Counted from the first letter of the stretch, positions 1,517 to 24,000 are shown. The stretch is DNA of 24,000 nucleotides from Caulobacteraceae bacterium (GCA_050261415.1 JBLNDG010000132.1:21050-45049); one strand, 5' to 3'. Program-made: numbers and translations. Notes: generated by a model from the sequence alone, not told the origin.

Positions 1517-1544
1517 ATTATGAACAATTAAGGAGGTGGTTAGT

Positions 1545-2697: not shown

Positions 2698-2723
2698 CGG
2701 TATGGATTTGGAAAGTTTTAAAT

Positions 2724-4145: not shown

Positions 4146-4150
4146 ATGAA

Positions 4151-5646: not shown

Positions 5647-6282
5647 ATGAAGTATAAATACATACTATTCGATCTGGATGGAACTCTGATTGACACAAAC
5701 AAGCTCATTTTAGATTCTTTCAAGCATACATACAGAAAGCATCTGGGCAGGGAAGTGGAAGAGGCGGAAATTCTGAAATATTTCGGAGAACCTCTTATTG
5801 ATACTCTCAGGCGGTATTCGGAAGAAAATGCCGAAGAGATGTTCAAAACCTATATTGAGTTTAACGAAGCCCAGCATGATTCCAGCGTATCCTTGTGCGG
5901 CAATATAAAGGAGCTGCTCAAAGAATTGAAAAAATCAGGATGCGTTATGGCAGTTGTTACATCAAAAAGAAGGAAAATCGCAGTCAGGGGCTTGGAGCTT
6001 TTTGATATCAGGAAGTATTTCGATTTGGAAGTAACACTGGAGGATACGGAACTGCACAAACCGAATCCGGCACCGGTTCTGAAGGCATTGGAGCTTTTGG
6101 GTTCAAAGCCGGAAGAGGCATTGATGATTGGTGACAGCATATTTGATATTCATTGCGCCCATGGAGCGGGAGTCAAGGCTGTACTTGTTAAGTGGAGTGC
6201 TGCCAAAGGGCATCAAGAAGAATCGGATGCGGCTGATTATGTGATAAATGAGACGTGTGAATTGGTCAATATAGTTAAGTAA
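5647..6282 (+). CDS. ppaX: HAD-superfamily phosphatase, PpaX-like pyrophosphatase
   Basis: [56 protein letters not shown] closely follow B. subtilis PpaX as I recall it ([20 protein letters not shown].HT ... [26 protein letters not shown]). Start moved to ATG 5647 (AAGGAG 7 nt upstream) from track start 5602. Confidence 0.8.
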   Translation: [211 protein letters not shown]

Positions 6283-6290
6283 CAAAGGAA

Positions 6291-6320
6291 GGGATGTGCG
6301 CAATGCACATCCCATTTTTA
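6291..6320. terminator. bidirectional intrinsic terminator
   Basis: GGGATGTGC (6291..6299) / GCACATCCC (6305..6313), then ATTTTTA. Lies between the convergent HAD and ABC permease genes. Confidence 0.8.
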
Positions 6321-6325
6321 ATATT

Positions 6326-7347: not shown

Positions 7348-8961
7348 TTAAGCACCGTGGATGCTGATGTGGATGGCATTTCCGTCCCACGTTATTTTAC
7401 TCAGTATATTCTTGATATATTTCCTTTTTTCGTTTATACCCAGCTTGTCGAAAACTTCAGGAAAGTTTTTTATTGCCTGGTTAACCAGGTCTATATTCAT
7501 TTGCTCTATGTGATTACGTTCTCTCTCGCCCTTCAAGCGTTCAATCGAATACTTAAGTTCAGATGTCTTTTGATCAAGCTTCTCAATCTGGGATATTATG
7601 TACTTGGCAGCAGTGGAGTTTGAATTCTGAGATAGCTGTAATGTCAAGTTTTCAATGGCCTTTTCATTTTCTTCCAGCTCTTTATTAAATGTCTGCAGCT
7701 TTTTAGAATGGATTTTGTCCTGTTTGGCAGTTTTACTTTTGTTTTGGTTAAGAGCGTCAGAGAACTCTCCGGTACCGAGTGAAAGCTTCATAAGTTCATC
7801 CTTAACGAATTTGTCTGCATCCTTACCAACTACATTCTTGTTGGCACATCTTACACCATGGGACCTTTCCTTGGTAGTGCATATATAGTAATAATTTCGC
7901 TCCGGCTTTGTTCGCTTGCTGCCATAGCCCAAACGCATAAGGGCACCGCAATTGCATCTTATAAGGCCGGAAAGCAATCCGATTTTGCTTGTTTCATACC
8001 TGGGAGCTTTATCCTTGTTCTGTTCAATTATGTTCTGCACCCTTATCCAATCAGAACTGGGGATGATACCTTTATGCTTTGATATTGCAACTATCCACTC
8101 AGTCATGTTTTTAACACGGTTCCTTTTTCCTTTAACCTCCTGGGTCTTATTATAGGAAAGTACTCCATGAGAACCGTTGAATTCTTTTTTATCACTTGCT
8201 ATATCAACATTATTGCGTGAGAAATAGTCATAGAGAAGCTCATCAGCTACTGCATATACCGGGTTGGAAAGTATCATTTTAAGTGCGGATTTATCAAAGT
8301 AGTTTCCATTCTTACTCTTAACTCCATTTTCAGCGCACCAGATTTCAAGCTTGGATATGCTCCCGAGCCTGAGGTACTGGTTATATAGATTTCTGACCAG
8401 CTCCAGTTCTCCCGGAATACCGGTCAGTTTATACATTTTCTTTTCATTCATCTCGTTGTCATAATAGGGTACCGGCTCGCTTTTAAACCCGGTTGGCGTT
8501 TTGCCGCCGGTCCAGCGGCCGGCTCGGGCAAGCTGCAGCATATTATCTCTGATGCGCTCTGCAATTGTCTCACGTTCAAGCTGTGCGAATACAGAGGCAA
8601 TATACATCATAGCGCGACCAAGCGGGGTAGAAGTATCAAACTGCTCCCTAATTGATATAAAAGATATGTTGTATTCCTGGAGAGAGTTGATGAGGTTGGA
8701 GAAGTCGGAAATATTCCTGCTTATTCTGTCAAGGCGGTAGCAAACTATGGCATCGAACATATTTGCCTTGGCATCCTTGAGCATTTTCTGGAACTTCGGA
8801 CGGTCAACATTTCCCCCTGAGAAGCCTTCATCTTCATATACAAATGCTTCATCCACCTTGAAGTTCTTTTCGATATACTCACGGCACATAGTGATCTGGT
8901 TTTCGATGGACTCCCCTATGCCGGTAAATTTTGATTTACGACTGTATATTGCAAATTTCAT
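7348..8961 (-). CDS. large serine recombinase (prophage integrase)
   Basis: 537 aa. N-terminal resolvase domain (AIYSRKS ... YEDEGFSGGNVDRPKFQKML ... VCYRLDRISRN), recombinase domain, Cys-rich zinc-ribbon region (CNCGALM ... YYYICTTKERSHGVRCANK) and a C-terminal coiled coil. Confidence 0.95.
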   Translation of the reverse strand: MKFAIYSRKSKFTGIGESIENQITMCREYIEKNFKVDEAFVYEDEGFSGGNVDRPKFQKMLKDAKANMFDAIVCYRLDRISRNISDFSNLINSLQEYNISFISIREQFDTSTPLGRAMMYIASVFAQLERETIAERIRDNMLQLARAGRWTGGKTPTGFKSEPVPYYDNEMNEKKMYKLTGIPGELELVRNLYNQYLRLGSISKLEIWCAENGVKSKNGNYFDKSALKMILSNPVYAVADELLYDYFSRNNVDIASDKKEFNGSHGVLSYNKTQEVKGKRNRVKNMTEWIVAISKHKGIIPSSDWIRVQNIIEQNKDKAPRYETSKIGLLSGLIRCNCGALMRLGYGSKRTKPERNYYYICTTKERSHGVRCANKNVVGKDADKFVKDELMKLSLGTGEFSDALNQNKSKTAKQDKIHSKKLQTFNKELEENEKAIENLTLQLSQNSNSTAAKYIISQIEKLDQKTSELKYSIERLKGERERNHIEQMNIDLVNQAIKNFPEVFDKLGINEKRKYIKNILSKITWDGNAIHISIHGA

Positions 8962-8975: not shown

Positions 8976-9001
8976 ATAAAACAAAATGCCCGAAGGCATT
9001 A
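8976..9001 (-). terminator. intrinsic terminator after the three-Cys gene, directly abutting the integrase SD
   Basis: Reverse strand: TAATGCCTTCGGGCATTTTGTTTTA. Stem AATGCC/GGCATT with TTCG loop (8985..9000) plus T-run. GGAGG of the integrase follows about 4 nt later. Confidence 0.75.
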
Positions 9002-9775
9002 TATGCATTGGATATTTTCCGTAATAGTTCCATCTTTAATGTGATACTCCATTTCATAGCTATTACAGAACTCAATTGTTTGATATGCTAATGTGTTAAA
9101 AAACTCCTTATACCCTTTGTATTTATTTATAAGCGGATTGTAATTCAACCTACCGAAAATAATTCTGTCAACAAATTTTATTGATTCTAATATTTCGCCA
9201 TAATCCTGATCTACTATATTTGGTGTTGGATAAGGTTCTATGCTTACCCATGTCTTACAATCATGATCATGCAAATACTTTAAATTTCTTATTCTATCAG
9301 TATAAGGTGCAGATCCGGGTTCATATTTTCGCCTAAAGTTTTCATCCAGCGATACAAGTGTAATACCATACTCATTGTCGGGTGACAGGTCGACTAATTC
9401 TTTAGGGAGTAGACCTTTTGTTAGAGCAGTGGTCTTTATACCATTGCTATTGAGCATCTTTATGATTTCTATGCTCATATTAGATATTTCATTGTAACCA
9501 TACATAAATGGATCTGTCGTAAAACATAGGTGTACAGACTTGATATCTTTCTTGTATCTAGGTATTTCTTTCATCAGGATATCAAGTGCATTAATAGCAA
9601 GCTTTGGTTTACACCATTCCTCATAATTTTTTACTTTCCCGAAACGCTTTGCTAACATCATTGCATAACAAGGGTATTTGCAGCCATGAGAACACCCAAG
9701 GACATGATTTATAGTATAATCGCCATACTCAACTCCGGTCTTATAAAGCATTGATTTCCTAGTGATTGCATCCAT
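8999..9775 (-). CDS. three-Cys-motif, radical-SAM-like protein (SplB/DUF5131-like architecture)
   Basis: 258 aa. N-terminal HVLGCSHGCKYPCYAMMLAKRFG resembles the GCxxxCxYCYA cluster loop of SplB-type and Gp37/Gp68-type radical-SAM-like proteins, but with C-x3-C-x3-C spacing (C28, C32, C36). Later VHLCFTTDPF and IKTTALTKG resemble their core strands. Adjacent to a TcmP gene. Confidence 0.6.
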   Translation of the reverse strand: MDAITRKSMLYKTGVEYGDYTINHVLGCSHGCKYPCYAMMLAKRFGKVKNYEEWCKPKLAINALDILMKEIPRYKKDIKSVHLCFTTDPFMYGYNEISNMSIEIIKMLNSNGIKTTALTKGLLPKELVDLSPDNEYGITLVSLDENFRRKYEPGSAPYTDRIRNLKYLHDHDCKTWVSIEPYPTPNIVDQDYGEILESIKFVDRIIFGRLNYNPLINKYKGYKEFFNTLAYQTIEFCNSYEMEYHIKDGTITENIQCI

Positions 9776-9808
9776 TTTTATCCCTCTCTATTTTTACTTT
9801 ATAATACC

Positions 9809-9817
9809 ATTATACCA
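9809..9817 (-). promoter_or_regulatory. extended -10 element (TGGTATAAT) upstream of the three-Cys gene
   Basis: Reverse strand ...TTATGGTATAATGGTATTATAAAG... lies 30-40 nt before the ATG at 9775 and after a short hairpin AAGAAC-N4-GTTCTT (9829..9844). No convincing -35. Confidence 0.35.
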
Positions 9818-9844
9818 TAATTTAGATAAGAACATACGTTCTTG

Positions 9845-10948
9845 TTAAAAAATTATAATGTCATTGCCAGAAAGCCCTCTAGGTGTTTTTGATGTTATTC
9901 TCTTTACTGCAATCTTCCCTTCTTTTTCTAATGTTTTAAGTGCTTCTCTATAATGCTTTTCAACGCTTTGTGTAAGTATAAAAGTATTTTCGAGAATATT
10001 GTCATATGTAATCCTCTTACCTTTTGGGAAAAACTTCATAAGATATGTTTTTAGTGATTCTACATTAGGATCAAATAACCGAAGTTGTGACCTGGACTCC
10101 TGATATTGTAACTCCTTTGGACCAAGGTAAGCATAGTGCTCATTTTGATTGAACATTATTGATTTCATGATTGCCAAGCCCTTGAAATGATTTGTAGCAT
10201 ATATGAGGTAGTACAATGTTGAACATTTACTGTCTTCACAAATTCTAAATGGGAATACATATTTTGCACAGTTTTCTTCAATGAGCCTGCGCATATAAAG
10301 GTTACGCAATGCATGTTCTCTTTCAGTACCAGATAAATCAATATATTCCTTCCATTCACTGCAACCAAAAAGAGTATCGAAGTTTTTTTCCTGATGTTTT
10401 ACCGATAAAAAACGGTTCATTTCTCTGAACATAAAGTTAAAGAATACTTCGGTGCGAGGGATGCTTAATATCCTTTTAACAGTTTCAAATGGTACACCTG
10501 TATATCCGAATGGATCAATAAAGAAGAAGGAGGGAACAAGATTATCCTTTGTTTTATCAAGTAGTTCATTAATGGCAGTATCAAAATCCTTATTCTCGTG
10601 AAAGACTGAGTGTACTGACGGAAAATCCTTTCTTCTTTCTGTGACAACTTCAACTAGGTTATCATAATTGTCCTTATCTCTTTCAACAAAGTAGCAAATG
10701 AATTTCAAATTACGAACTGACTTAAAATGTGAAACTTCTTGGCATGCCTGCATTGCAAGAAGAGGAGAACCATCACTGCCATTAGCATACTGCCCTCGGC
10801 CGGCAAATCCGTCTACATACATAATAGTATCGTTATTGCTCCCAAGTATAGGTATCCATGCTTCCAGGTACTTTTTCATTAAGGTATGCTTTACTTGAGC
10901 ATGCTCAGAATAAGTCCATTTATTTTCGTCGTTATTTTTTAATGCCAT
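9845..10948 (-). CDS. three-Cys-motif partner protein TcmP-like (RlmJ-like methyltransferase fold suspected)
   Basis: 367 aa. EHAQVKHTLMKKYLEAW...IMYVDGFAGRGQYANGSDGSPLLA...FFFIDPFGYTG. By eye this parallels E. coli RlmJ as I recall it: NHADVLKHT...LYLDTHAGAGRYQLGS...PGSPLIA...LILIDPPYE. SD GGAGTG lies 7 nt before the ATG, 13 nt after the upstream stop. Confidence 0.6.
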   Translation of the reverse strand: MALKNNDENKWTYSEHAQVKHTLMKKYLEAWIPILGSNNDTIMYVDGFAGRGQYANGSDGSPLLAMQACQEVSHFKSVRNLKFICYFVERDKDNYDNLVEVVTERRKDFPSVHSVFHENKDFDTAINELLDKTKDNLVPSFFFIDPFGYTGVPFETVKRILSIPRTEVFFNFMFREMNRFLSVKHQEKNFDTLFGCSEWKEYIDLSGTEREHALRNLYMRRLIEENCAKYVFPFRICEDSKCSTLYYLIYATNHFKGLAIMKSIMFNQNEHYAYLGPKELQYQESRSQLRLFDPNVESLKTYLMKFFPKGKRITYDNILENTFILTQSVEKHYREALKTLEKEGKIAVKRITSKTPRGLSGNDIIIF

Positions 10949-12142: not shown

Positions 12143-12172
12143 TTATATAAAAAGTTCCGTTAGGAACCTTTT
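12143..12172 (-). terminator. intrinsic terminator after the ImmA-like gene
   Basis: Reverse strand AAGGTTCC-TAAC-GGAACTTT (8 bp, one G-U) followed by TTATATA. Overlaps the stop codon at 12160..12162. Confidence 0.65.
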
Positions 12173-13263
12173 GTTGCAGCAGCTTTATCAGCCGTTTGAT
12201 TGGCAACTTGACTTTCTTGATATTTTCTCCAGTGAGGCAGAAGCCCTTGAAGATAAAAGGATGTTTTATTGCCGCAGCATTCACAATAACGGGCGTTGCC
12301 ATCAGGGATATTACCGCAGCTGAATTTATATTCTTGATTACCCATAATATCAATACTGCGGATCTCGTTTGTACACTCCTGAATTAAATAGGTATTACAA
12401 TTTGGACAATAATGTTCATCGGCTATTTCCGTATTTCCGCATGTAGGGCAGGAGAGGGCATGTCCATATTCATCTGTCTCTATTGCATACAGGTATTCTA
12501 CCGGCTCTTTATCTCCTGTGAAGTTTGTCAAAAGTGAGCAGCCGCATATGGCACAATACTTGGCATACGGGTTATTCGTAATATTTCCGCAGACAATACA
12601 TGTTATATTTTTGAATATATCAAATAATTTATAAGTATTTTCAATAGAATTAGGGTAGCTTACAGGTTCGGGCTCTGTATCAGCGATTTGTGGCTCAATG
12701 GGTACAACTTTATTTTCTTGAGAAGAGCTGCCGCTGAGTATAAGCAGGGAATCTTTCTTTCTCTGTATTTTCAGTGAGTCCAGCCTGTTAAGCAACGACT
12801 CCCATGATACGTTAAAAAGATTGTAAAGCTTACCGATATTAGCAGCAGTAGATGGAGGATGTTGCTTTATATATTTATATACCCATTCTTCAGGCATTAA
12901 TAGCTCTGCAGCAAATGCGTTAGCTTCTTTATCAATATAAGCACAGCCTATTTCATCTGATAGATATTTCTTATAATTTATAAAGTGTTTAAGAATAATA
13001 TGGCCGGCTTCATGGGCATATGTCCAGGTGGACATATCCTTATATTCTACATTATTTATATATATTTTATATTTGCCGCTTATAAACCTTGTAAACCCTT
13101 TTTCATCAGGATCGCTGAAGTTATATAGCTGCCCGAGCCGGCATACAATGCTTTTGGGGTGAACTGGCGGCTCTTCAATATTAAAGCTTCTTAATGTATT
13201 TTGAGCAATGGACTTTATTTGTTTTTTCCGTGAAGTGGTAAGTAGTAGGCTCATGAATGTCAC
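12160..13263 (-). CDS. ImmA/IrrE-family zinc metallopeptidase fused to three zinc-ribbon modules
   Basis: 367 aa. HEXXH site YAHEAGHIILKH followed by EANAFAAELLMP (typical ImmA/IrrE). C-terminal half carries CIVCGN-x10-CAICG, CPTCGN-x9-CPNCN and SCGN-x9-CECCG. Confidence 0.8.
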   Translation of the reverse strand: MTFMSLLLTTSRKKQIKSIAQNTLRSFNIEEPPVHPKSIVCRLGQLYNFSDPDEKGFTRFISGKYKIYINNVEYKDMSTWTYAHEAGHIILKHFINYKKYLSDEIGCAYIDKEANAFAAELLMPEEWVYKYIKQHPPSTAANIGKLYNLFNVSWESLLNRLDSLKIQRKKDSLLILSGSSSQENKVVPIEPQIADTEPEPVSYPNSIENTYKLFDIFKNITCIVCGNITNNPYAKYCAICGCSLLTNFTGDKEPVEYLYAIETDEYGHALSCPTCGNTEIADEHYCPNCNTYLIQECTNEIRSIDIMGNQEYKFSCGNIPDGNARYCECCGNKTSFYLQGLLPHWRKYQESQVANQTADKAAATKGS

Positions 13264-13329: not shown

Positions 13330-13456
13330 CCCATACTTACGGATTATTGGCAGGCGGTAAACTCTGCATCTCTTTTGACCACGAGGGCGCGTGGGGAACC
13401 TTTCCCACCTCAAATAATCCTATTTAATAGTATTAACAAAGTTTATTTTTTATTTC
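13330..13456 (-). ncRNA. candidate structured RNA (sRNA or cis leader of the ImmA-like gene)
   Basis: GC-rich island in AT-rich spacer. 8-bp closing helix GGATTATT (13341..13348) / AATAATCC (13413..13420) encloses hairpins 13350..13367, 13379..13394 and 13395..13405. Upstream on the minus strand: TTGTAT (13491..13486), 17 nt, TATAAT (13468..13463). Downstream: the terminator at 13297..13329. No known RNA family recognised. Confidence 0.3.
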
Positions 13457-13505: not shown

Positions 13506-13883
13506 CTAAATTTTATGGTATCTGCCTTTATTTATTCTTGCTTTGCACTTGCTATCATTTATCATATAAAAACTTGATATCGATAACGGACCCGATGTAT
13601 TGTTTATCTTTAGCCCAATTGTAACAAAATCATCAATTTTTTTAACAACTTCGATACAGTTTGCTTTATTAGGATAAATCCCGCAATACTCTGGAGATGA
13701 AAGTATTTGAGGAAGCAGCTGAAAATATTTAAAAAAATCCTTTCCATGCTCTGATCTGGCGTGTCTGATTGCTCCAGGAGATATAAAGACACGCTTGTCC
13801 ACAATTGAAAGATTTAAAATAGTTATTACTTTATTATTTAGGTCACACACATATTGGGAAGTTACAGCATATTCATCTAACAT
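13506..13883 (-). CDS. hypothetical protein, possible Barnase/EndoU/ColicinE5-D/RelE-like (PBECR-type) nuclease fold
   Basis: 125 aa, 41 nt downstream of the repressor gene, same strand. VFISPGAIRHARSEHGKDF...ILSSPEY...ANCIEVVKKIDD-FVTIGLK recalls the pattern of phage PBECR domains (H-x-x-x-x-x-H then Pd.v...n.i.fvk). Weak, by-eye assignment only. Confidence 0.5.
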   Translation of the reverse strand: MLDEYAVTSQYVCDLNNKVITILNLSIVDKRVFISPGAIRHARSEHGKDFFKYFQLLPQILSSPEYCGIYPNKANCIEVVKKIDDFVTIGLKINNTSGPLSISSFYMINDSKCKARINKGRYHKI

Positions 13884-16781: not shown

Positions 16782-17300
16782 TTGTTAGCGGAAGCAATAA
16801 AGGAAGCAAGAGGAAGATATGGTGTTTCACAAACTGCACTTGCGGGCAGGCTCAATATATCTCAGTCAGTTATAAGTGATGTGGAAAACGGGAAAAAGAA
16901 TTTATCTCATGATCTGGCTTTCAGGCTCCCAGAAGTGCTTAACAATGACGCAAAGGTCAAGGCTGAAATAGCCCACGAAATGAAAACAGAGTTTTTCAAC
17001 GTACCGGTGCTAAGGAATATTGATGACAGCCCCAAAAATGTGCTTGATGTATTGGTGTCTGAAGCTGCAGAGGCAATAAAAAGTGTCCAGGATATAAAGA
17101 GACTGCTATTGAATAAGCGCCCCGGTGCCCAGTTGGATGAAGAGACAATGACAGAGTTAATTCCACTTGAGGAGCAGATCGGGGACTTGTTCGCAGCCCT
17201 TAAGATGCATCTTATATCAATGAATGTAAGTTATGGACTGAATATCAGGACTGTTGAAGCCAGGGTGAATGCTAAGCTACGAAGGAAGGGCTATATATAA
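16782..17300 (+). CDS. XRE-family HTH domain protein (172 aa)
   Basis: TTG start after AAAGGAGG. N-terminal SQTALAGRLNISQSVISDVENGKK helix-turn-helix. C-terminal helical domain unassigned. Confidence 0.75.
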   Translation: MLAEAIKEARGRYGVSQTALAGRLNISQSVISDVENGKKNLSHDLAFRLPEVLNNDAKVKAEIAHEMKTEFFNVPVLRNIDDSPKNVLDVLVSEAAEAIKSVQDIKRLLLNKRPGAQLDEETMTELIPLEEQIGDLFAALKMHLISMNVSYGLNIRTVEARVNAKLRRKGYI

Positions 17301-17422
17301 AAAAAGAGTGCTTAAAAAAGCACCAAATTTATGTTCCATTTATATTTTATCATTACATAAATGAGTCTGCAATACTTTGAAGTTCCTTTATAAAACAAAA
17401 TGTCGGGAAAGGTGATGAACAT

Positions 17423-17767
17423 ATGAATACCATCAATTTTACATGTAAAATGCGTAGAGGTAAGTCAATTGAAGAGTGGCCGGCTACGATAACTAAGCTT
17501 ATAAATCACGGAAGCCACTATGAAATGCAGATATCTTCCCGTTCCAGCATAACGGTAATATTTGGTGATACACTGAGAGGCGGCTTCTGCTGCATACCTG
17601 GTGACAATGCAGGTTGTGAGTTAGCCGGATACAATGATTTATTCTGGAACCTTGAACGCATCACAGCTGCTATGAAAAACAAGGTGGATGCGGTAACGGT
17701 GGCTTTTGCTATAGCTGCCGTTGGCAAGCTGCTTGATGAGAACGGGCAACTATCAAAAGCCTTATAG
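17423..17767 (+). CDS. hypothetical phage protein (114 aa)
   Basis: AAAGGTGA SD 7 nt upstream. No motif recognised. Confidence 0.6.
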   Translation: MNTINFTCKMRRGKSIEEWPATITKLINHGSHYEMQISSRSSITVIFGDTLRGGFCCIPGDNAGCELAGYNDLFWNLERITAAMKNKVDAVTVAFAIAAVGKLLDENGQLSKAL

Positions 17768-17840
17768 GAAAGAGGATTAAAATTCTAAACTCCAGTACTG
17801 AACTGGTAAATCATGATAATTTATGAAAGGGGGTGTACTA

Positions 17841-18203
17841 GTGGATAAACTTACTATCGCCAATATAGCCAGGGGGGCATTGGTAGAGCAGTTTGAAGTT
17901 GAACTTGAGAAAGTTCTCGACAACATAGTTGATCCAAACACAGATCCTAAGAAGGTCAGGAAAATTCAAATCAACATGGAGTTCAAGCCTAACGAGAAGC
18001 GAAACATGGCAGAGATAAAGTGTCAGACTAAATCAAATCTCGTACCGGCAAATACGGTTGAGACAGCAATAACAATCGGAAAGGGTACGGACGGGACCAT
18101 AGCAGCGGCTGAATTGGATTCAGAGATATTCGGCCAGTTGAAGCTTGGTGATGAAGGCAACATAGAAGAGGCTGGGAAAATAGTCCAATACATTAAGAAA
18201 TAG
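17841..18203 (+). CDS. hypothetical phage early protein (~120 aa)
   Basis: GTG 17841 after AAAGGGGGTG preferred to track ATG 17823. No motif I can assign confidently. Confidence 0.6.
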   Translation: MDKLTIANIARGALVEQFEVELEKVLDNIVDPNTDPKKVRKIQINMEFKPNEKRNMAEIKCQTKSNLVPANTVETAITIGKGTDGTIAAAELDSEIFGQLKLGDEGNIEEAGKIVQYIKK

Positions 18204-18217
18204 GAGGAAGAGTACAG

Positions 18218-18916
18218 ATGATAAAAGCAGCATTAGAATATCTAGTCAACTTAGGCAAGACAGAAGTTTTGGAAGTCGATGGTCAGAAATATTCAACAAA
18301 GGGACTGCATCATATTACACAGCCTAGCCCTGATAATCTGGTTATTACAACTCTTACTGGTTTGGTGGACTATATTATATCCAAGATTGATGATCATAAG
18401 ACATCATTACTTATGCAAGTAGTATCGCCGAAGCAGGTGAGAGTATATTCACCGCTAAAACCGGATGCAATTAGGGATTACTACATAGAATGTACGGCGC
18501 AACTTCCTGATATATGCTTTGGAAAATTTATTGACATCGAGAATTTTAACATCATGCTTCAAAGCTGCTTTGTACAAAATGAACATTCTGCATCAGTTCT
18601 CCAGGTAGTTGGAAATATCACAGAACAAACAGTTAGAACAGTGGGTGACGATGGAGTATCACAGGAGGTAACAGCAAGAGCAGGTATAGTAAAAGTTACT
18701 AATGTACCTGTACCTAATCCGGTGATATTAAAGCCATTCAGAACATTTGCAGAAGTGGAACAGCCTGAAAGCAAATTTGTATTCCGTATGCAGGATGGAC
18801 CCAGAGCTGCAATCTTTGAAGCTGATGGTGGAGCATGGAAACTGGAAGCAATGAGGAATATTAAGGAATATCTCAAAATAAATCTTGAAGGTTGCAACGT
18901 AAAGATTATCTCATAA
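18218..18916 (+). CDS. hypothetical phage early protein (232 aa)
   Basis: AGGAGGAAGAG SD. Long ORF with ordinary composition, unassigned. Confidence 0.7.
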   Translation: MIKAALEYLVNLGKTEVLEVDGQKYSTKGLHHITQPSPDNLVITTLTGLVDYIISKIDDHKTSLLMQVVSPKQVRVYSPLKPDAIRDYYIECTAQLPDICFGKFIDIENFNIMLQSCFVQNEHSASVLQVVGNITEQTVRTVGDDGVSQEVTARAGIVKVTNVPVPNPVILKPFRTFAEVEQPESKFVFRMQDGPRAAIFEADGGAWKLEAMRNIKEYLKINLEGCNVKIIS

Positions 18917-18924
18917 TAAAAATA

Positions 18925-18956
18925 TCTGAGAGGGCATAAAAAAGAGCCCTCTCAGA
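18925..18956 (+). terminator. strong hairpin after the 232-aa ORF
   Basis: TCTGAGAGGGC (18925..18935) / GCCCTCTCAGA (18946..18956), 11-bp perfect stem. No T-run on the plus strand, so termination efficiency is unclear. Confidence 0.5.
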
Positions 18957-19028
18957 GCAAAAATTATATTTCCAATATAAATATATCATATTATTCAAAA
19001 TATATCAAATCTATAAGGGGGTATTACA

Positions 19029-19268
19029 ATGCAGAGCGATAAAGTGAAGGTCAACATGGTCAGTTGTAATGATCAGAAGCAGCATAAGATAAAAGCAATA
19101 TTCCCTACAGGTATTTCAACACATCATAAAGGCGTACTTGTAGCCCTTCCGGAGGAGGGTGATTCAACGGTAAAAATATATATTCTTGGGTGCTCAGGAT
19201 CTGAGTATAGAAAAGCGATTGAAGCCATGCTGAGTCAGATAAAAGAGCTCGGTGAGGTGAGATTTTGA
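19029..19268 (+). CDS. hypothetical small protein (79 aa)
   Basis: AAGGGGGT SD. Stop overlaps the TTG start of the methyltransferase gene. Confidence 0.6.
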   Translation: MQSDKVKVNMVSCNDQKQHKIKAIFPTGISTHHKGVLVALPEEGDSTVKIYILGCSGSEYRKAIEAMLSQIKELGEVRF

Positions 19269-20920
19269 AGCAGATTGATATATTTAGTGAAATTATGGTA
19301 GATAACTTCGCAGGTGGTGGTGGCGCGAGCACAGGCATAGAGATGGCAATTGGACGGTCAGTAGATATAGCAATTAATCACGATCCCGCCGCTATAGCAA
19401 TGCACCGTGCAAACCATCCTAATACAGAGCATTATTGCGAGAATGTATGGAAAGTGGACCCAAGGAAAGCCGTTAGAGGCAGGCCTGTGGCATTAGCCTG
19501 GTTCTCCCCGGACTGTAAACACTTCTCAAAGGCTAAGGGGGGAAAACCGGTTGAAAAGAAAATCAGGGGGCTTGCATGGATTGTATTAAGATGGGCGGCT
19601 CTTGTAAGACCAAGAGTAATTATGTTGGAAAATGTGGAAGAGTTTCAAACCTGGGGGCCATTAAACAGGCGTAAACACCCAATAAAGAGCAAGAAAAGTC
19701 AAACGTATTGGAAGTGGAGGGGACAGCTTGAAGCATTAGGATACGATATTGAGACAAAAGAACTGATTGCGGCAGACTACGGAGCGCCAACAAAGCGAAA
19801 ACGTTTCTTCATGGTTGCACGGTGTGACGGTAAGCCTATTGCGTGGCCTAAGCCTACTCATGGAGATAGAAACAGTGAAGAAGTGAAAAACGGGCTGCTT
19901 AAGCCTTATGTGCCAGCTGCAGACATTATAGACTGGGATATTCCATGTAAGAGCATATTTGACAGAAGCAAGCCTCTGGCAGAAAACACTATGAAACGAA
20001 TTGCCCGGGGATTACAGAAATTTGTTATCGAGAATCCAGAGCCATTTATTATTCAAGTAAATCATAGTGGTGACAGTTTTAGAGGGCAAGTGTTAGATGA
20101 ACCTATGCCAACAATCACAGCGAAGCATGGATTTGGGCTTGTAACTCCATACATTACTCAAATAGGGCAGACCGGATTTACGGATGATAGGTCAAAGAGT
20201 GTTGAAGAGCCTATTACAACAGTGATGTCAAAGCAAGAGCATATGCTGATAGCACCCACTTTGATTCAGTACCATTCCGAAACATCAAAAGATGAAGTTA
20301 GAGGTCAGACGCTTGAAGAACCAATTATGACAATTGACAGTAACCCCAGATATGGGTTAGTGAGTGCTTTCATCAGCAAATATTATGACGGTACTTATAA
20401 AGGTGCTGGGAGCAAATGTGATGATCCCTTACATACGGTAACTGGTAAAGACCACAATGCACTGGTTACAGATCATATAATTCAAATGAATAACAATATG
20501 GTCGGAACTGATATGAGGGAACCACTAAATACCATAGTAGCAGGGCCCGGACATATTGGAGAGGTAAGAGCTTTCTTAATTAAATACTACGGACAAGGCA
20601 CTGGGCAGGATATCAAAGAACCTCTTGATACCGTGGTTGGCAAAGACAGATTCGGGCTGGTAACAATAGAAGGCCAGGATTATCAGATAGTAGATATCGG
20701 CATGAGAATGCTTGAACCACATGAACTTTTCAGAGCTCAGGGATTTCCGGAGAACTACATAATTGACCGTGACGACAAAGGCAATCCATATCCTAAAAAA
20801 GAGCAGGTAGCCAGATGCGGTAATGCAGTACCTCCACCATTCGCAGAAGCTTTGGTAAGAGCTAACTTGCCGGAGCTGTGCGATAGCGAGGATACAGGTA
20901 GATATTATAGTGCGGTATAA
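19265..20920 (+). CDS. DNA (cytosine-5) methyltransferase, phage type, with expanded repeat-containing variable region
   Basis: Motif I VDNFAGGGGAS, motif IV FSPDCKHFSKAKGG (catalytic Cys), motif VI IMLENVEEF, motif VIII GAPTKRKRFFMVA, motif IX RAQGFPENY, motif X RCGNAVPPPFA. About 190 aa between VIII and IX contain six tandem repeats. Confidence 0.9.
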   Translation: MKQIDIFSEIMVDNFAGGGGASTGIEMAIGRSVDIAINHDPAAIAMHRANHPNTEHYCENVWKVDPRKAVRGRPVALAWFSPDCKHFSKAKGGKPVEKKIRGLAWIVLRWAALVRPRVIMLENVEEFQTWGPLNRRKHPIKSKKSQTYWKWRGQLEALGYDIETKELIAADYGAPTKRKRFFMVARCDGKPIAWPKPTHGDRNSEEVKNGLLKPYVPAADIIDWDIPCKSIFDRSKPLAENTMKRIARGLQKFVIENPEPFIIQVNHSGDSFRGQVLDEPMPTITAKHGFGLVTPYITQIGQTGFTDDRSKSVEEPITTVMSKQEHMLIAPTLIQYHSETSKDEVRGQTLEEPIMTIDSNPRYGLVSAFISKYYDGTYKGAGSKCDDPLHTVTGKDHNALVTDHIIQMNNNMVGTDMREPLNTIVAGPGHIGEVRAFLIKYYGQGTGQDIKEPLDTVVGKDRFGLVTIEGQDYQIVDIGMRMLEPHELFRAQGFPENYIIDRDDKGNPYPKKEQVARCGNAVPPPFAEALVRANLPELCDSEDTGRYYSAV

Positions 20921-20983
20921 CACATCATGATCATTATGCGAACTAAGAAAAAATAAATTTAATCGTCATAGGTAAGCTTTTAA

Positions 20984-22135
20984 ATGCCGGCAGCCTTTCC
21001 GACGGGAAAGGAACTTATGATGAAATCAAATAAGAAAAATGAATATAAAAGTAAAGTATACACAGAACGACCGGCGTACGCAGATTTTAACGCGCCTCAT
21101 AAATTTGAAGCCATTAAAAGCATAATCGCCAGAAGACTAATTGAGTACCCAAATGCGATTTGCTCCTATTCTGGTGGAAGTGACAGTGACATCATGCTGC
21201 ATCTGATCGAAACAGTGCGTAAAATTTACAATCTCCCACCCATTCAATATTGCTTTTTCAACACCGGGCTTGAGATGGAGGCAATTAAGCGGCACGTCTG
21301 CGAAGTAGAGAAGCTATATGGGGTCACAATTACCGAGCACCGTCCTAAAAAGAACATTGTGCAGGCCACAAGGGAATATGGGCTGCCGTTTGTATCAAAG
21401 ATTATGTCATCTGGGCTTGAAGGGGTGCAGAAAAAAAACATCCCATTGTCAATAGCAGCAGAATACGCAAATGCAGAGGATAAGGCGGCAAAACGAGCAG
21501 AGCTTAAAGAACGCTATCCAAAGTGTGAATCAACAATTAACTTTCTATGTGGATGCAATTCTGCGGGGGAACCACGGCCGGACATCCAACTCGTCATAAA
21601 CTCGTCAAAATATATGCTTGACTTTATTATTGAAAATCCAATCCCATTTAAAGTAAGCAACAAATGCTGTGATTGCTGCAAAAAGCAAGTAGCGCATAGC
21701 GTGCAAAAGCCGTTTGATATGATAATCACAGGAGAGCGCCGGGATGAGGGTGGTATGAGGTCGGTCCCGCGCAAGGATAATACATCAATGTGCTTTACCG
21801 AAACGGCTGATGGAAAATACAGACTTCGACCTCTGTTTTATGTGTTGGATGCGGACAAAAAGTGGTACAAAGACTACTACGGGATTCGCTATTCGGATGC
21901 CTACGAAGTGTACGGATTAACGCGCACAGGATGTTGTGGATGTCCCATATCGGCAAAAGCAATAGAAGATTTGGAAAAGATAAGGCCCTTTGAGCCGAAT
22001 TTGGTTAAGGCCGCATGGAACGTGTTTGGTGACAGCTATAGATATCGTCAGCAGTACAACGAATACAAGGCAAATAGACGGAGGATTGAAGTTAAGCAGA
22101 AAGATTATACAGATTCATTTTTAGAGGATGCCTAA
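20984..22135 (+). CDS. PP-loop ATP-pyrophosphatase, PAPS reductase / DndC / IbrA-like family
   Basis: PP-loop SYSGGSDSD (21170..21187). Distal Cys clusters CCDCCKK and RTGCCGCP, as seen in phage PAPS-reductase-like proteins. Start may be ATG 21017. Confidence 0.8.
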   Translation: MPAAFPTGKELMMKSNKKNEYKSKVYTERPAYADFNAPHKFEAIKSIIARRLIEYPNAICSYSGGSDSDIMLHLIETVRKIYNLPPIQYCFFNTGLEMEAIKRHVCEVEKLYGVTITEHRPKKNIVQATREYGLPFVSKIMSSGLEGVQKKNIPLSIAAEYANAEDKAAKRAELKERYPKCESTINFLCGCNSAGEPRPDIQLVINSSKYMLDFIIENPIPFKVSNKCCDCCKKQVAHSVQKPFDMIITGERRDEGGMRSVPRKDNTSMCFTETADGKYRLRPLFYVLDADKKWYKDYYGIRYSDAYEVYGLTRTGCCGCPISAKAIEDLEKIRPFEPNLVKAAWNVFGDSYRYRQQYNEYKANRRRIEVKQKDYTDSFLEDA

Positions 22136-22170
22136 GACGCATCACATGATTTAAGCGAAGGAGAGATTGT

Positions 22171-22371
22171 ATGACAAGATTTACATTATTATCAAGCAAC
22201 ATAGACAAATTGAGCTCATTTATCGCCATGATAAGCAAAGGGCATACAATTTGTGGACTATGTAATACAGATCGCAAAATATGCAATACGGAGATTAATA
22301 ATAATTGTGTTAAGCAGTATCTAGATACGGAGTTAGATGCGGATTTTACCTGTAACTTTATGAAAGTCTAA
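22171..22371 (+). CDS. small Cys-rich hypothetical protein (66 aa)
   Basis: GAAGGAGAG SD. Contains ICGLCNTDRKICNTEINNNC. Confidence 0.55.
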   Translation: MTRFTLLSSNIDKLSSFIAMISKGHTICGLCNTDRKICNTEINNNCVKQYLDTELDADFTCNFMKV

Positions 22372-22400
22372 TTTGCATTTCATGATGGAGGCGGTATGGC

Positions 22401-22652
22401 ATGGCACACATTGAGGTATGGTACCGATGTCCTGTTTGCAACCTTGCATACGACAACCAAAGAGAGGCTATCGGATGCAGAAATGCTCACCCCGTCAAAT
22501 CGGAAAGATGGGCAGTTGGGAATGGCGGAAAAGCGGTACGGATTTCTGATAATTGCACCCCAGACGGATACGGCGGAGTCAACTGGGCACTGCGGGAAGC
22601 AGACCTGAGCGACCTCATAGAGGAACGCAAACGGCAGTTGGAGGGAAAATGA
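22401..22652 (+). CDS. small zinc-finger-like hypothetical protein (83 aa)
   Basis: GGAGG lies 9 nt upstream. Contains WYRCPVCNLAYDNQREAIGCRNAH (CxxC...CxxxH). Confidence 0.55.
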   Translation: MAHIEVWYRCPVCNLAYDNQREAIGCRNAHPVKSERWAVGNGGKAVRISDNCTPDGYGGVNWALREADLSDLIEERKRQLEGK

Positions 22653-22682
22653 TAGAAATGCGACATAAAGGCAGGTGAGGAT

Positions 22683-23684
22683 TTGAATATCCAGTTAATA
22701 AACTTAGAGTACGAAACATATAACGATCCAAAGTATAAAAACAACTATGCACTTGAGCAGATTAGAAAGCACCATGAGGCACTAGGGGATAAAGTATACA
22801 GCTATCGTGAGGGAGTTCCTTTACTGATATATGACAAAACTTATGTTAGCTCAATATTCACTTGGACGAAAGAAAAGAAGGAAGCTCAGGAAATATTGAA
22901 ATATGCCAATGATAGTTGGGAGTTTGGTGGCACAGGGTTTGATATCCTCAAGAGACTGCCTTGTGAAATCGAGCAGATAAAGGTAAATAAAAACTTTGGC
23001 TGGACTCAAAGGGGCTGCAACAACAAATGTGTTTTCTGTGTAGTTCATAAAAAGGAAGGTTGCGCTCATGAAGTGGGTGATCTTTATGACATATGGGATG
23101 GAAAGTCAAGAAGAATAACTTTATATGACAACAATATCCTTCAACTGCCGAAGCATTTTTTATGGATATGCTCTCAGATCCGTAAAGAAGACATCAAAGT
23201 GGATTGGAACCAGGGGCTGGATATTCGGTTAGTTAATGATGATGTAGCAAAAGAGCTAAGTACCATAAAACATGCTGAATATCACTTCGCTTTTGATAAC
23301 TCTTCATTAGATAAAATAATAGCTGAGAAGGTTGAAATCCTTAAAAAGTATGATATTAACTGCAGCATTTTCTATATGATTGTAGGTATCCAGGATAAGA
23401 AAGGGAAAACAGCTAAAGAGGATATTGAGGATGCGCTATATAGATTGAAACTGCTAAAGCAATTAGGGCAGAATGCCATGGTTATGCGGTACAGGAAAGT
23501 TAGTGATGATCAGCCTGAAACATTAATAAATAGTGAGACAAAGAATCTATACATACCTGTTGCGAACTGGGGCAGTGTGCATAGTGCATTCCAGAGCATG
23601 GACTTTTACAATGACTACCTAAGTAAGCACGAAAGAGGCATGCCATACAAACAGTATTTTGATGAAATGGGAATTGCGATATGA
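22683..23684 (+). CDS. radical SAM enzyme (canonical CX3CX2C), function unknown
   Basis: TTG start after AGGTGAGG. QRGCNNKCVFCVVHKKEG gives C112-x3-C116-x2-C119 (23016..23039). The N-terminal ~100 aa resemble the small Rossmann-like lead domain of class-B-like radical SAM enzymes. Confidence 0.8.
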   Translation: MNIQLINLEYETYNDPKYKNNYALEQIRKHHEALGDKVYSYREGVPLLIYDKTYVSSIFTWTKEKKEAQEILKYANDSWEFGGTGFDILKRLPCEIEQIKVNKNFGWTQRGCNNKCVFCVVHKKEGCAHEVGDLYDIWDGKSRRITLYDNNILQLPKHFLWICSQIRKEDIKVDWNQGLDIRLVNDDVAKELSTIKHAEYHFAFDNSSLDKIIAEKVEILKKYDINCSIFYMIVGIQDKKGKTAKEDIEDALYRLKLLKQLGQNAMVMRYRKVSDDQPETLINSETKNLYIPVANWGSVHSAFQSMDFYNDYLSKHERGMPYKQYFDEMGIAI

Positions 23685-24000
23685 CGCAATGCAAGGAGGT
23701 CAAGATAAATCAATGGATATTCATAAGGATAATTACAGACAATGCAGCATTGCTCCTTATATCGTGGAGTCTTCAACTGGCGAAAGCATTTGTATATGTC
23801 ATACTGATGAAAAAGCGGAGCTGATAGTTAGAGCACTGAATCTCATGCCAGGATTGGCGGATTCGTTGAAAAATATTGAACGGATATGTGAGGAGATAGA
23901 CAGGGATGCGGATGAGCCTGATAAAGTAATGTGTGGTACCGGGAGAATTACACTTGAAACGGCAAAAGCTTATCCAAAGCATTTAAGGACCAATAGTTGA
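23659..24000 (+). CDS. hypothetical phage protein
   Basis: ORF ends with TGA at 23998..24000. True start uncertain (ATG 23659, 23689 or 23713). No motif recognised. Confidence 0.5.
   Translation: MMKWELRYDAMQGGQDKSMDIHKDNYRQCSIAPYIVESSTGESICICHTDEKAELIVRALNLMPGLADSLKNIERICEEIDRDADEPDKVMCGTGRITLETAKAYPKHLRTNS

Follow-up and report, generated by a model that had tools for sequence, protein, structure and literature searches.

Genomic context of the gene cluster

The window, by which we mean the whole analyzed stretch of 24,000 nucleotides, carries five successive ORFs between positions 19265 and 23684, all on the plus strand and separated by gaps of 63, 35, 29, and 30 bp. Their products are a predicted C5 cytosine DNA methyltransferase (C5-MTase; 19265..20920, 551 aa), a PAPS-reductase-like PP-loop ATP pyrophosphatase (20984..22135, 383 aa; referred to as the PAPS-like protein), a 66-aa Cys-containing protein (22171..22371), an 83-aa zinc-ribbon-like small phage protein with a CPVC...C..H pattern (22401..22652), and a radical-SAM enzyme (22683..23684, 333 aa). 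All five were recovered as the original prediction had placed them, and the motifs that it had named in their products (SGGSDS, CCDCC, TGCCGCP, and CX3CX2C) were present at the expected positions.

An HTH_3 regulator (16782..17300, plus strand; PF01381, E = 1e-10) stands at the head of a rightward early operon. From position 16782 to 24000 every ORF lies on the plus strand, and no convincing internal promoter or terminator was found in this part of the operon. The left end of the prophage is marked by a large serine recombinase (7348..8961, minus strand) with Resolvase, Recombinase, and Zn_ribbon_recom domains, to the left of which lie the host genes SfsA, CorA, PBP, FtsW/RodA, and HAD. The five ORFs sit in the rightward early operon of this serine-recombinase prophage; the phage is temperate and its host is a low-GC anaerobic Firmicute. 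No tRNA genes occur in the 24-kb window.

The five genes had been proposed to act as one unit, which did not hold for the two small ORFs. For the 66-aa ORF, a set of 135 related loci yielded no homologue, and it is a singleton among ~15 billion proteins, where it appears only through the Logan assembly; judging by the locus-tag numbering, it was not called by NCBI. It lies outside the recurrent neighborhood described below and may not be a gene, being either a doubtful call or a lineage-specific orphan. The 83-aa protein has 75 homologous clusters (51–83% identity), and its surroundings in the loci L220–L225 are other genes of phages or plasmids, with neither a PAPS-like nor a radical-SAM gene nearby. 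It represents a real small family, but a passenger.

A putatively multispecific C5 methyltransferase

Members of the C5-MTase family contain both catalytic halves and the motifs I (FxGxG), VI (ENV), and X (GNxV). The 551-aa protein matched PF00145 in two stretches (E = 8e-27, 94.9 bits with a cut-off of 22) and phrog_116 (E = 3e-109), and it contains FAGGG at position 15, ENV at 122, and GNAV at 519. Positions 1–326 of the 329 profile positions of TIGR00675 were aligned, with a score of 78.5 that falls below the cut-off of 100.65 because of a long insert. By its sequence, the protein is thus assigned to the C5 cytosine DNA methyltransferases (PF00145/TIGR00675). Between the catalytic blocks, six tandem TRD-like repeats of ~35 aa, '(E/D)PxxT(I/V)...', were found by sequence pattern (at 279, 315, 352, 387, 419, and 452, within 279–490). 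This architecture suggests a multispecific phage enzyme, a type that carries tandem independent target-recognizing domains with one specificity each, and for which we take the methyltransferases of the Bacillus phages SPR, phi3T, and rho11s to be the appropriate comparison. As in these enzymes, an enlarged variable region with several tandem target-recognition-like modules is bordered by the conserved motif blocks, and the gene is phage-borne without a partner endonuclease. Unlike them, the protein from the window falls into phrog_116 and has its best relatives in gut and Roseburia phages.

The PAPS-reductase-like PP-loop protein

The PAPS_reduct/PP-loop superfamily is defined by an SGGxDS motif together with a PF01507 match above the gathering score. 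The 383-aa protein matched PF01507 (E = 2e-11, 44.4 bits with a cut-off of 22.5) as well as phrog_424 (E = 1e-26) and contains SGGSDS at positions 63–68, so that it can be placed in this superfamily of ATP pyrophosphatases by sequence comparison. Of the two distal Cys clusters, TGCCGCP occupies positions 315–321. The predicted CCDCC cluster is indeed present at 228–232, but C231 is not conserved and the family consensus reads CCDYC. The invariant Cys residues of the family are C181, C189, C191, C228, C229, C232, C317, C318, and C320; the clusters probably bind Fe-S as in the DndC/SspD/APS-reductase-like part of the superfamily. The AF2 prediction for this protein could not be used (pLDDT 45), so that its putative kinship with DndC is based on weak PP-loop matches and Cys patterns. 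The subfamily is very highly conserved, with >120 clusters at 84–92% identity, and about 85–90% identity is kept over many unrelated prophages.

CysH-type PAPS/APS reductase was considered as an identity for the protein and rejected on the basis of its scores with NF002537 (24.9 bits, cut-off 154) and TIGR02055 (20, cut-off 235). CysH carries a catalytic tail motif at its C-terminus, which here is replaced by RTGCCGCP. The true role of phage PAPS reductases is an acknowledged open question (PMC11437467), and such genes have been found in Aca-regulated anti-defense operons and variable regions (PMC13551039).

The radical-SAM protein and its family

The core of radical-SAM enzymes is a partial TIM barrel that bears a CX3CX2C cluster motif. 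In the 333-aa protein this motif is formed by C112, C116, and C119, which are invariant in 25 homologues; no conserved Cys outside the motif was found in these 25 or in 129 homologues. The protein matched phrog_9298 (E = 7e-46), and Pfam Radical_SAM (PF04055) was sub-threshold for it (E = 0.04) and recorded for several of its homologues. Its AF2 model (pLDDT 93) consists of a Rossmann-like N-terminal domain followed by the CX3CX2C core, and Foldseek matched it to MtaB, MgmA, MiaB, and AprD4 (E = 2e-8 to 1e-5, TM 0.52–0.62); the model also aligns with LipA and viperin-like structures. The protein belongs to the radical-SAM superfamily, with a single cluster. Class B (cobalamin-dependent) radical-SAM enzymes have an N-terminal cobalamin-binding Rossmann domain; the model, with its Rossmann-like N-terminal domain, matches MgmA (9ccb) and the B12-domain-like AprD4, and the protein has no B12-binding Pfam match.

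The methylthiotransferases MiaB, RimO, and MtaB have a UPF0004 domain at the N-terminus, with three Cys for an auxiliary cluster, and a TRAM domain at the C-terminus. An assignment to this group was rejected, as TIGR00089 scored 12.4 bits (cut-off 251) and both the auxiliary-cluster Cys and TRAM are missing. The protein shares with MiaB/MtaB, MgmA, and AprD4 the order of Rossmann-like domain and radical-SAM core and a similar RGCxxxCxFCxVP motif, but it is ~120 residues shorter, and the sequence similarity is confined to the cluster loop. The top structural matches modify RNA or protein (MiaB/MtaB, MgmA), not DNA, which speaks against the explanation favored below.

The family comprises 642 clusters (50% identity) at E ≤ 1e-30, occurs only in viruses and prophages whose hosts are anaerobic bacteria and archaea, and is, as far as we can tell, uncharacterized.

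Linkage of the three enzymes

Neighborhood statistics were based on 151 loci centered on the radical-SAM gene, comparing the slots within ±2 genes with those at distances of 3–12 genes. DNA methyltransferases occupied 50 of 577 near slots (8.7%) vs. 43 of 2210 further out (1.9%; odds ratio 4.8), and PAPS-like genes 17 of 577 (2.9%) vs. 11 of 2210 (0.5%; odds ratio 6.1); the loci were counted as independent though some are related, so that the p-values are optimistic. Among 20 control families only DUF551 was enriched, and further neighbors of the radical-SAM gene were ArdA and Dam. Among 80 IMG/VR loci, 12–13 had a PAPS-like gene within 8–10 kb of the radical-SAM gene; among 80 loci from species-dereplicated genomes, 20 did. 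These pairs, two of them archaeal, were mostly <2.6 kb apart on the same strand, and in many loci, including one of archaeal origin (L184), the two genes overlap or are separated by 0–114 bp. One and the same highly conserved PAPS-like subfamily (84–90% identical) adjoins radical-SAM proteins that are mutually only 26–44% identical.

The order C5-MTase, PAPS-like gene, radical-SAM gene recurs outside the window, with proteins 23–42% identical over the aligned stretches, in four highly divergent loci (L070, L082, L150, and L184), among them loci from Planctomycetota and Methanomicrobiales. The predicted linkage of PP-loop and radical-SAM genes was recovered in other viruses far above positional expectation; it proved, however, to be facultative. 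In ~59% of the radical-SAM loci neither a methyltransferase nor a PAPS-like gene occurs within three genes, a PAPS-like neighbor is missing from the closest relatives of the radical-SAM protein (79% and 58% identity), and of 45 close relatives of the PAPS-like protein, only 4 have a radical-SAM gene nearby and 41 do not. The neighbors of both genes vary widely. Where a PAPS-like and a radical-SAM gene occur together they tend to be neighbors, but either is usually found without the other; together with the methyltransferase they form a recurrent but loose neighborhood.

The anti-restriction context that had been proposed was supported for the radical-SAM family, which is found in DNA-methylase and anti-restriction neighborhoods and adjoins N6/N4 and Dam methylases more often than C5 methylases. 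Fusions were observed with an N6_N4 MTase (L153), a single case from a MAG for which stop-codon loss or an assembly error is possible, with ParB_N (P0300), and with HTH (P0276). Fusions of PAPS-like and radical-SAM domains were absent both from 120 listed close homologues and from a domain scan of the longest 10 out of the 150 best representatives. Radical-SAM proteins adjoining PAPS-like genes showed no distinguishing residues or extra Cys.

Comparison with known modification systems

The cluster is not a Dnd, Ssp, BREX type 4, IbrAB, or QueC/QueE system. This agrees with the original prediction, which had found no fit to a named system: DndC, IbrA, QueC, and QueE models gave no matches, and a scan of 30 proteins confirmed that ParB, TGT/DpdA, and DndA/D/E are absent from the 24-kb window. 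DndC is recognized by a specific model match with dndA/D/E (or iscS and dndD) nearby; no such model was among the NCBIfam/PADLOC matches at E ≤ 0.1, and no DndA/D/E-like protein among the ORFs of the window. For SspD of Ssp systems and BrxP of BREX type 4, a full-length match is accompanied by SspB/C or BrxC/Z/L partners. Here, the matches to BrxP (E = 2e-4) and SspD (E = 4e-3) covered only the PP-loop at residues 58–133. The PAPS-like protein resembles DndC, SspD, and BrxP in its SGGxDS PP-loop, in Cys pairs compatible with a [4Fe-4S] site, and in the association of its gene with DNA-modification genes, but differs from their loci in that DndA/D/E, SspB/C, and BrxC/Z/L are missing from the window. 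Phosphorothioate synthesis has been reported to require a P-loop NTPase partner (PMC12914056), and none adjoins the PAPS-like gene.

The sole published phenotype of a phage PAPS domain is the anti-Dnd activity conferred by a vibriophage PAPS domain fused to Dam, which is encoded in a variable, anti-defense region (Piel et al.; bioRxiv 10.1101/2021.05.05.442762). In both cases a phage PAPS-like gene is coupled with a DNA methylase gene; in the window, however, it is separate and adjoins a C5 methylase instead of being fused to Dam, and the Vibrio case lacks a radical-SAM gene. No close similarity of the PAPS-like protein to the vibriophage proteins was detectable.

IbrA combines a PAPS-reductase domain with a C-terminal DUF3440 and is adjacent to the ParB-like IbrB. 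Like the prophage-derived IbrA of E. coli, the PAPS-like protein is prophage-borne, but Pfam gave PF01507 without DUF3440, and none of the 30 window proteins scanned matched a ParB family. A ParB_N domain does occur in the fused radical-SAM homologue P0300, though the window lacks IbrB. QueC/QueE systems show matches to both models and FolE, QueD, or DpdA (TGT) in the locus. Neither the five proteins nor their neighbors had Pfam or NCBIfam matches to QueC or QueE, and FolE, QueD, and DpdA/TGT were absent. With these routes to dPreQ0/dADG the cluster shares the pairing of a PP-loop ATPase and a radical-SAM enzyme in the setting of phage DNA modification, whereas the radical-SAM fold here is MiaB/MgmA-like, with an N-terminal Rossmann-like domain. 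A precedent for the sculpting of modified bases after replication by a phage radical-SAM enzyme is gp53 of phage M6, a spore-photoproduct-lyase-like isomerase of thymidine hypermodification that is proposed to act on modified thymidine in DNA, with a 5-hmdU kinase, aGPT-Pplase, and PLP enzymes as partners (PMC8989533). No spore photoproduct lyase was among the fold matches of our protein, and the gp53 partner genes are absent from the window.

Interpretation of the cluster

We favor, with a probability of roughly 0.55, the explanation that the cluster is the anti-restriction DNA-modification part of a temperate phage early operon and consists of separable modules instead of one fixed pathway. 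The C5-MTase, probably multispecific, would methylate replicated phage DNA and thereby protect it from cleavage by host restriction enzymes, as its family membership suggests. For the PAPS-like protein, the most likely function is adenylation of a nucleic-acid target or the handling of sulfur in early counter-defense or modification, a role that would resemble that of the vibriophage PAPS domain in overcoming Dnd. The radical-SAM enzyme most likely acts on DNA, possibly on methylated bases, via 5'-deoxyadenosyl-radical chemistry, because members of its family adjoin or are fused to DNA methylases, ParB_N, and HTH domains. The 66-aa and 83-aa ORFs would be passengers.

A hypermodified phage genome produced by sequential action of the C5-MTase, the PP-loop enzyme, and the radical-SAM enzyme on the same DNA positions is conceivable, if doubtful. 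The methyl of 5mC could be functionalized by the radical-SAM enzyme and the product adenylated by the PP-loop enzyme for further substitution; alternatively, the PP-loop/Fe-S protein and the radical-SAM enzyme could jointly insert sulfur, in the manner of a DndC-like phosphorothioation module that is minimal and split in two. The tight spacing of the two genes in many loci, the collinear trio in five divergent loci (including the window), the repeated placement of different radical-SAM subfamilies beside one PAPS-like subfamily, and the fusion of a radical-SAM domain to a methyltransferase, suggestive of consecutive steps, are all consistent with such coupling, as are the phage C5-MTase and TET clusters, in which a modification is layered on 5mC (PMC8256090), and the claim that DndC itself uses SAM-radical chemistry (statement in PMC10853773). 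However, each enzyme mostly occurs without the other, including in the closest radical-SAM relatives, the two are not fused in the homologues scanned, PAPS-adjacent radical-SAM proteins have no hallmark residues, methylases other than C5 are the more frequent neighbors, and a DndD/SspC/BrxC-type ATPase or a cysteine desulfurase is missing from the window. Since the linkage is facultative and the five genes form no unit, we regard a single pathway of adenylation plus radical chemistry layered on 5mC as possible only.

The structural proximity to the tRNA methylthiotransferases MtaB and MiaB, the MiaB-like cluster motif, weak TilS matches of the PP-loop protein among NCBIfam models, and an RtcB tRNA ligase gene 1.2 kb downstream of the radical-SAM gene in Bacteroides phage BI-TP1 could indicate that a TtcA/TilS/ThiI-like PP-loop enzyme and a MiaB-like radical-SAM enzyme modify host or phage tRNA. 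Translation could thereby be tuned or tRNA be protected from anticodon nucleases, with methylases nearby only as early accessory genes. We consider this quite improbable, as only the CX3CX2C Cys are invariant in the radical-SAM protein, which lacks TRAM and the N-terminal auxiliary-cluster Cys, the fusion partners bind or modify DNA, the DNA methylase enrichment is specific to the slots directly beside the radical-SAM gene, and the window lacks tRNA genes. Finally, the PAPS-like gene might be an auxiliary metabolic gene for sulfate assimilation that met an unconnected radical-SAM gene by mosaic accident. In PHROG, phrog_424 is listed under auxiliary metabolic genes, prophage PAPS reductases are read as sulfur metabolism genes in several papers, and both genes have widely varying neighbors. 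The low CysH score, the altered C-terminus, the absence of any further sulfur-assimilation gene from the window, and adjacency to radical-SAM and methylase genes that is about five- to six-fold above the outer level of the same loci make this explanation very unlikely.

Beyond the favored explanation of separable anti-restriction modules, the radical-SAM family might modify DNA bases already methylated by adjoining or fused methylases (5mC or N6/N4-methyl bases), a tentative proposal to which we assign a low probability. Where present, the PAPS-like enzyme would extend this chemistry through a substitution driven by adenylation or, acting as a minimal, split version of a DndC-like module, through the insertion of sulfur. 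TET enzymes require O2, which anaerobic hosts lack, and such a system would be an O2-independent counterpart of the phage C5-MTase and TET route. If this proposal were true, the three enzymes of the window would make up a pathway that leads to a hypermodified base or backbone in phage DNA not described so far.

Phage DNA modifications are a source of new nucleic-acid chemistry and of tools, among them DNA that resists restriction and enzymes that depend on modification, and to our knowledge the pathways described so far stem almost entirely from model phages grown aerobically. The window leads to a sizeable radical-SAM family with neighbors and fusion partners that point at DNA. The usual annotation of phage PAPS reductases is that of sulfur-metabolism genes, and the three-gene set from one prophage makes their role directly testable. 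The recurrence of the trio in viruses of anaerobic bacteria and archaea points to an undescribed chemical disguise of viral DNA, although the three genes do not form an obligatory unit.

Composition and prophage setting of the cluster

The five consecutive open reading frames (ORFs) that make up the predicted modification cluster were all found on the plus strand at window positions 19265–23684, separated in order by gaps of 63, 35, 29, and 30 bp. The first (19265–20920) encodes a C5 cytosine methylase (PF00145, E = 8e-27; phrog_116, E = 3e-109). The second (20984–22135) encodes a PAPS-reductase-like PP-loop protein, hereafter termed PAPS-like (PF01507, E = 2e-11; phrog_424), and contains the expected motifs SGGSDS (residues 63–68), CCDCC (228–232), and TGCCGCP (315–321). 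These genes are followed by a 66-aa ORF (22171–22371), an 83-aa zinc-ribbon protein (22401–22652), and a radical-SAM enzyme (22683–23684) with a strong match to phrog_9298 (E = 7e-46) and a Pfam match at E = 0.04 only. The assignments originally made for the three enzymes were confirmed, that of the radical SAM also by the invariance of C112, C116, and C119 (CX3CX2C) across its homologues and by an AlphaFold model that aligns with solved radical-SAM enzymes.

Bases 1–7147 of the window belong to the host, with genes for SfsA, CorA (preceded by an M-box riboswitch), a PBP transpeptidase, FtsW/RodA, HAD, and an ABC permease. The M-box (Mg2+) riboswitch (1294–1462, plus strand, 153 bits), located upstream of the CorA transporter gene (1765–2697), is an ordinary host feature. 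The prophage starts with a large serine recombinase (7348–8961), and the ABC-transporter permease ORF (6326–7147, minus strand), which ends ~200 bp from the recombinase gene, may be the gene hit by integration. An HTH_3 regulator (16782–17300) heads the rightward operon, and all genes from 16782 to 24000 are on the plus strand; the cluster was therefore assigned to the early region of a temperate phage. A promoter and terminator scan yielded counts no better than shuffle level.

Genes on the leftward arm of the prophage encode a second radical SAM, unrelated to that of the cluster, a GMT-wHTH protein, an HSDR_N protein, an ImmA/IrrE peptidase, and a PBECR3 nuclease. The second radical SAM (258 aa; PF04055, E = 6e-10; weak DUF5131) and the adjoining GMT-wHTH protein are encoded at 8999–10948 on the minus strand. 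The latter matches the PADLOC candidate defence system PDC-M30A (E = 4e-45) and the former, weakly, PDC-M30B/M41B, so that this pair beside the integrase looks like a prophage-borne candidate defence system. The M78 peptidase of the ImmA/IrrE type (12160–13263, minus strand), which has a zinc-ribbon tail and is capP/RmrA-like in PADLOC, and the barnase/EndoU-type PBECR3 nuclease (13506–13883, minus strand), both in the lysogeny arm, may be toxin or defence cargo. Between their genes lies an Rfam "skipping-rope" RNA motif (13343–13418, minus strand; 55 bits, gathering score 36.7). The G+C content of the window is 34–42%, and all relatives are from Clostridia/Peptococcaceae-type anaerobes (Desulfosporosinus, Desulfitobacterium, Oscillospiraceae); the source MAG therefore probably owes its NCBI label "Caulobacteraceae" to faulty binning or taxonomy.

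The two small ORFs had been listed as members of one candidate five-gene cluster. This does not hold, as no homologue of either was present in the 135 related loci fetched at that stage. The 66-aa ORF is a singleton among ~15 billion proteins, where it is represented through a Logan assembly alone. From the locus tags 10970, 10985, and 10990, which leave space for the methylase and the PAPS-like gene and none for this ORF, we infer that it was not called by NCBI. The 83-aa protein belongs to a genuine family (75 clusters, 51–83% identity); in the two lineages examined, its relatives occur among replication genes and further small genes of phages or plasmids, and neither a PAPS-like nor a radical-SAM gene lies within 6 kb of them.

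A radical-SAM family associated with DNA methylases

A search of 1.84 billion representatives at E ≤ 1e-30 retrieved 642 clusters (50% identity) of the radical-SAM family, which counts at least 540 IMG/VR loci and 224 loci in GTDB sampled at one genome per species. Its members occur in anaerobes of both domains, including Clostridia, Bacteroidales, Geobacter, Desulfobacteraceae, Planctomycetota, Lentisphaerae, methanogens, and Bathyarchaeota. Directly beside the radical-SAM genes, methylases of the N6/N4, C5, and Dam types are most common, and ArdA and DUF551 are also recurrent. A 570-aa protein from a Geobacter MAG is a fusion of the radical-SAM domain (residues 7–291) with an N6_N4 DNA methylase (355–553). 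Among the family representatives, P0300 is fused to ParB_N, P0276 carries an HTH_23 N-terminal to the radical-SAM domain, and P0277 has an N-terminal extension of ~75 residues with no annotation. Three further representatives (P0257, P0322, and P0368) contain inteins (Intein_splicing, LAGLIDADG_3) within the radical-SAM domain, and inteins are typical of conserved DNA-metabolism genes. Taken together, the methylase neighbours, the fusions with N6_N4 methylase, ParB_N, and HTH_23, and the inteins suggest a DNA-directed family, and the enzyme from the window probably acts on DNA.

The AlphaFold model (pLDDT 93) shows a Rossmann-like N-terminal domain followed by the radical-SAM core. Its best PDB matches were MtaB, MgmA, MiaB, and AprD4 (E = 2e-8 to 1e-5, TM 0.52–0.62), and the cluster loop of MiaB is similar to the RGCxxxCxFCxVP of the window protein. 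An assignment as methylthiotransferase was rejected, because an auxiliary cluster and a TRAM domain are absent and cysteines are conserved only in CX3CX2C. A SAM-depleting anti-restriction role also appears implausible for an enzyme whose gene neighbours and fusion partners include SAM-dependent methylases. Phage M6 gp53, whose fold is that of spore-photoproduct lyase, is the one phage radical SAM known to act on DNA (PMC8989533); spore-photoproduct lyase was not among the top 50 structural matches of our model. Sequence and profile searches with the PAPS-like and radical-SAM proteins against PDB sequences gave no matches or matched the cluster loop only. A literature search turned up no published description of this radical-SAM family or of its association with PAPS-like genes.

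The PAPS-like protein and the C5-methylase

The PAPS-like protein has >6000 homologues, and >120 distinct 90%-identity clusters are 84–92% identical to it despite differing prophage neighbours and hosts, a degree of conservation that is uncommon for a gene of a variable accessory region. The AF2 model (pLDDT 45) could not be used; the available homologues are too alike for a deep alignment. Prophages from a 5.6-Mb genome, a Desulfitobacterium MAG, and an Oscillospiraceae MAG carry the gene among the first to follow those for the repressor, the antirepressor, and Xis, with differing genes downstream of it. A position just after the lysogeny switch is usual for these genes (20984–22135 in the window; loci L087–L135 around its homologues). 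Twelve cysteines are invariant, including C181, C189, C191, CC..C (228, 229, and 232), and CC.C (317, 318, and 320); we liken the last two motifs to the CC...CxxC ligands found in APS reductase and in proteins of the DndC type.

The original prediction held that the cluster fits no named system, and this was borne out: tests for membership in QueC/QueE, Dnd, Ssp, BREX-4, IbrAB, and CysH, with partner genes sought across the 24-kb window, were all negative. The PAPS-like protein missed the curated CysH and APS reductase models by a wide margin, gave no match to profile models of DndC, DUF3440/IbrA, or QueC, and matched BrxP and SspD over the PP-loop only. Phosphorothioate synthesis by DndC, SspD, and BrxP reportedly needs a P-loop NTPase partner (PMC12914056); none is encoded adjacent to the PAPS-like gene of the window. 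SAM-radical chemistry via its own cluster has been ascribed to DndC, a claim toward which Rakesh et al. are cautious (PMC10853773). The function of phage PAPS-reductase homologues has been described as unknown (PMC11437467), and other papers assume sulfur metabolism. The only phenotype comes from vibriophages, which resisted host Dnd upon gaining a PAPS domain fused to Dam (bioRxiv 10.1101/2021.05.05.442762). A 2026 survey reports PAPS reductases both from variable regions and from putative anti-defence operons under Aca regulation (PMC13551039).

The variable region of the C5-methylase contains six tandem, TRD-like repeats of ~35 aa (residues 279–490) with the pattern "(E/D)PxxT(I/V)...GLV". 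They resemble the target-recognition domains that are stacked in multispecific methylases of Bacillus phages, and judging from this repeat architecture the window enzyme is probably multispecific as well.

Linkage of the three enzyme families

Three locus samples were gene-called, clustered, and searched with profile HMMs built from those loci. As a tblastn search of isolated phages with the PAPS-like protein retrieved 15 records only, an insufficient basis for a background rate at the genome level, the decay with distance within the loci was taken as control. PAPS-like genes were located within 10 kb of the radical-SAM gene in 12–13 of 80 IMG/VR loci and within two genes in eight, usually directly upstream with a gap of 0–38 bp. 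Of the 80 species-dereplicated genome loci, 20 have a PAPS-like gene at a distance of up to 8 kb, which in nearly all of them lies ≤2.6 kb away on the same strand, in either order; in two pairs from archaeal MAGs (L184 and L216) the two genes overlap by 19 bp or lie 377 bp apart. Across 151 radical-SAM loci, PAPS-like genes filled 17 of 577 slots within ±2 genes compared to 11 of 2210 at distances 3–12 (odds ratio 6.1, Fisher p = 4e-6), and DNA methylases 50 of 577 compared to 43 of 2210 (odds ratio 4.8, p = 8e-13), both p-values being optimistic since the loci are not phylogenetically independent. This pattern persists across phyla and both collections, and among 20 other families of similar size DUF551 alone was enriched beside the radical SAM.

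The order C5-methylase, PAPS-like, radical SAM recurs in L070, L082, L150 (Planctomycetota), and L184 (Methanomicrobiales), with 23–42% identity to the window proteins over the aligned stretches; for several pairs of C5-methylases and of PAPS-like proteins, the BLAST alignment covers a short segment only. Three near-identical PAPS-like/radical-SAM loci (L163–L165, 190-bp gap) at three sites of the Lentisphaerae bacterium WC36 chromosome (CP085689.1) suggest a multi-copy or transposable prophage.

Thus, the PP-loop/radical-SAM linkage in other phages, on which the original prediction had been made to depend, is real (odds ratio 6.1 in the 151 loci) but facultative: in 45 IMG/VR loci around close PAPS-like relatives (69–91% identity), the radical SAM was present in four, always ≤4 genes away, and absent from 41. 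In about 59% of the radical-SAM loci, the three nearest genes on either side include no methylase and no PAPS-like gene. The nearest relative of the radical SAM (79%, L136) lies between ERF/Gad2/DUF1351 and DUF1064 genes without either partner, and its 58% relatives (Desulfosporosinus, peat metagenomes) have methylases nearby and no PAPS-like gene. No specific residues or extra cysteines were found in radical SAMs with a PAPS-like neighbour. A single highly conserved PAPS-like subfamily pairs with radical SAMs that are only 26–44% identical to one another, which indicates that the juxtaposition formed repeatedly rather than by block inheritance.

Functional interpretation

We favour, with a probability of roughly 0.55, an early-expressed anti-restriction, DNA-modification island of separable modules. 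The C5-methylase with its six tandem TRD-like repeats would probably be multispecific, the PAPS-like protein would be a DndC-like PP-loop/Fe-S enzyme with a role in counter-defence or modification, and the radical SAM would probably have DNA as its target. A coupled pathway, either hypermodifying methylated bases or performing a split, DndC-like sulfur insertion, is conceivable given that PAPS-like and radical-SAM genes form closely spaced pairs, some of them overlapping, that the trio recurs in collinear order, and that a radical SAM-methylase fusion exists; the mutual dispensability of the PAPS-like and radical-SAM genes makes it a tentative proposal.

The MiaB/MtaB-like fold of the radical SAM could point to RNA as the substrate of both proteins, which we consider unlikely as it is contradicted by the fusion partners and neighbours of the family. 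We attach the lowest probability to a reading as unrelated passengers, with the PAPS-like gene serving sulfur assimilation: the CysH test was negative, and the enrichment of PAPS-like genes and methylases near the radical SAM (odds ratios 6.1 and 4.8) argues against it. The original reading as a modification cluster is thus retained in part, in that the enzymes are linked and fit no named system, whereas the linkage is facultative and the two small ORFs drop out.

The cluster is best filed among phage DNA-modification, anti-restriction islands, as a new variant thereof. Of its components, the radical-SAM family, uncharacterised, restricted to anaerobes, and tied to DNA methylases, is the most interesting.
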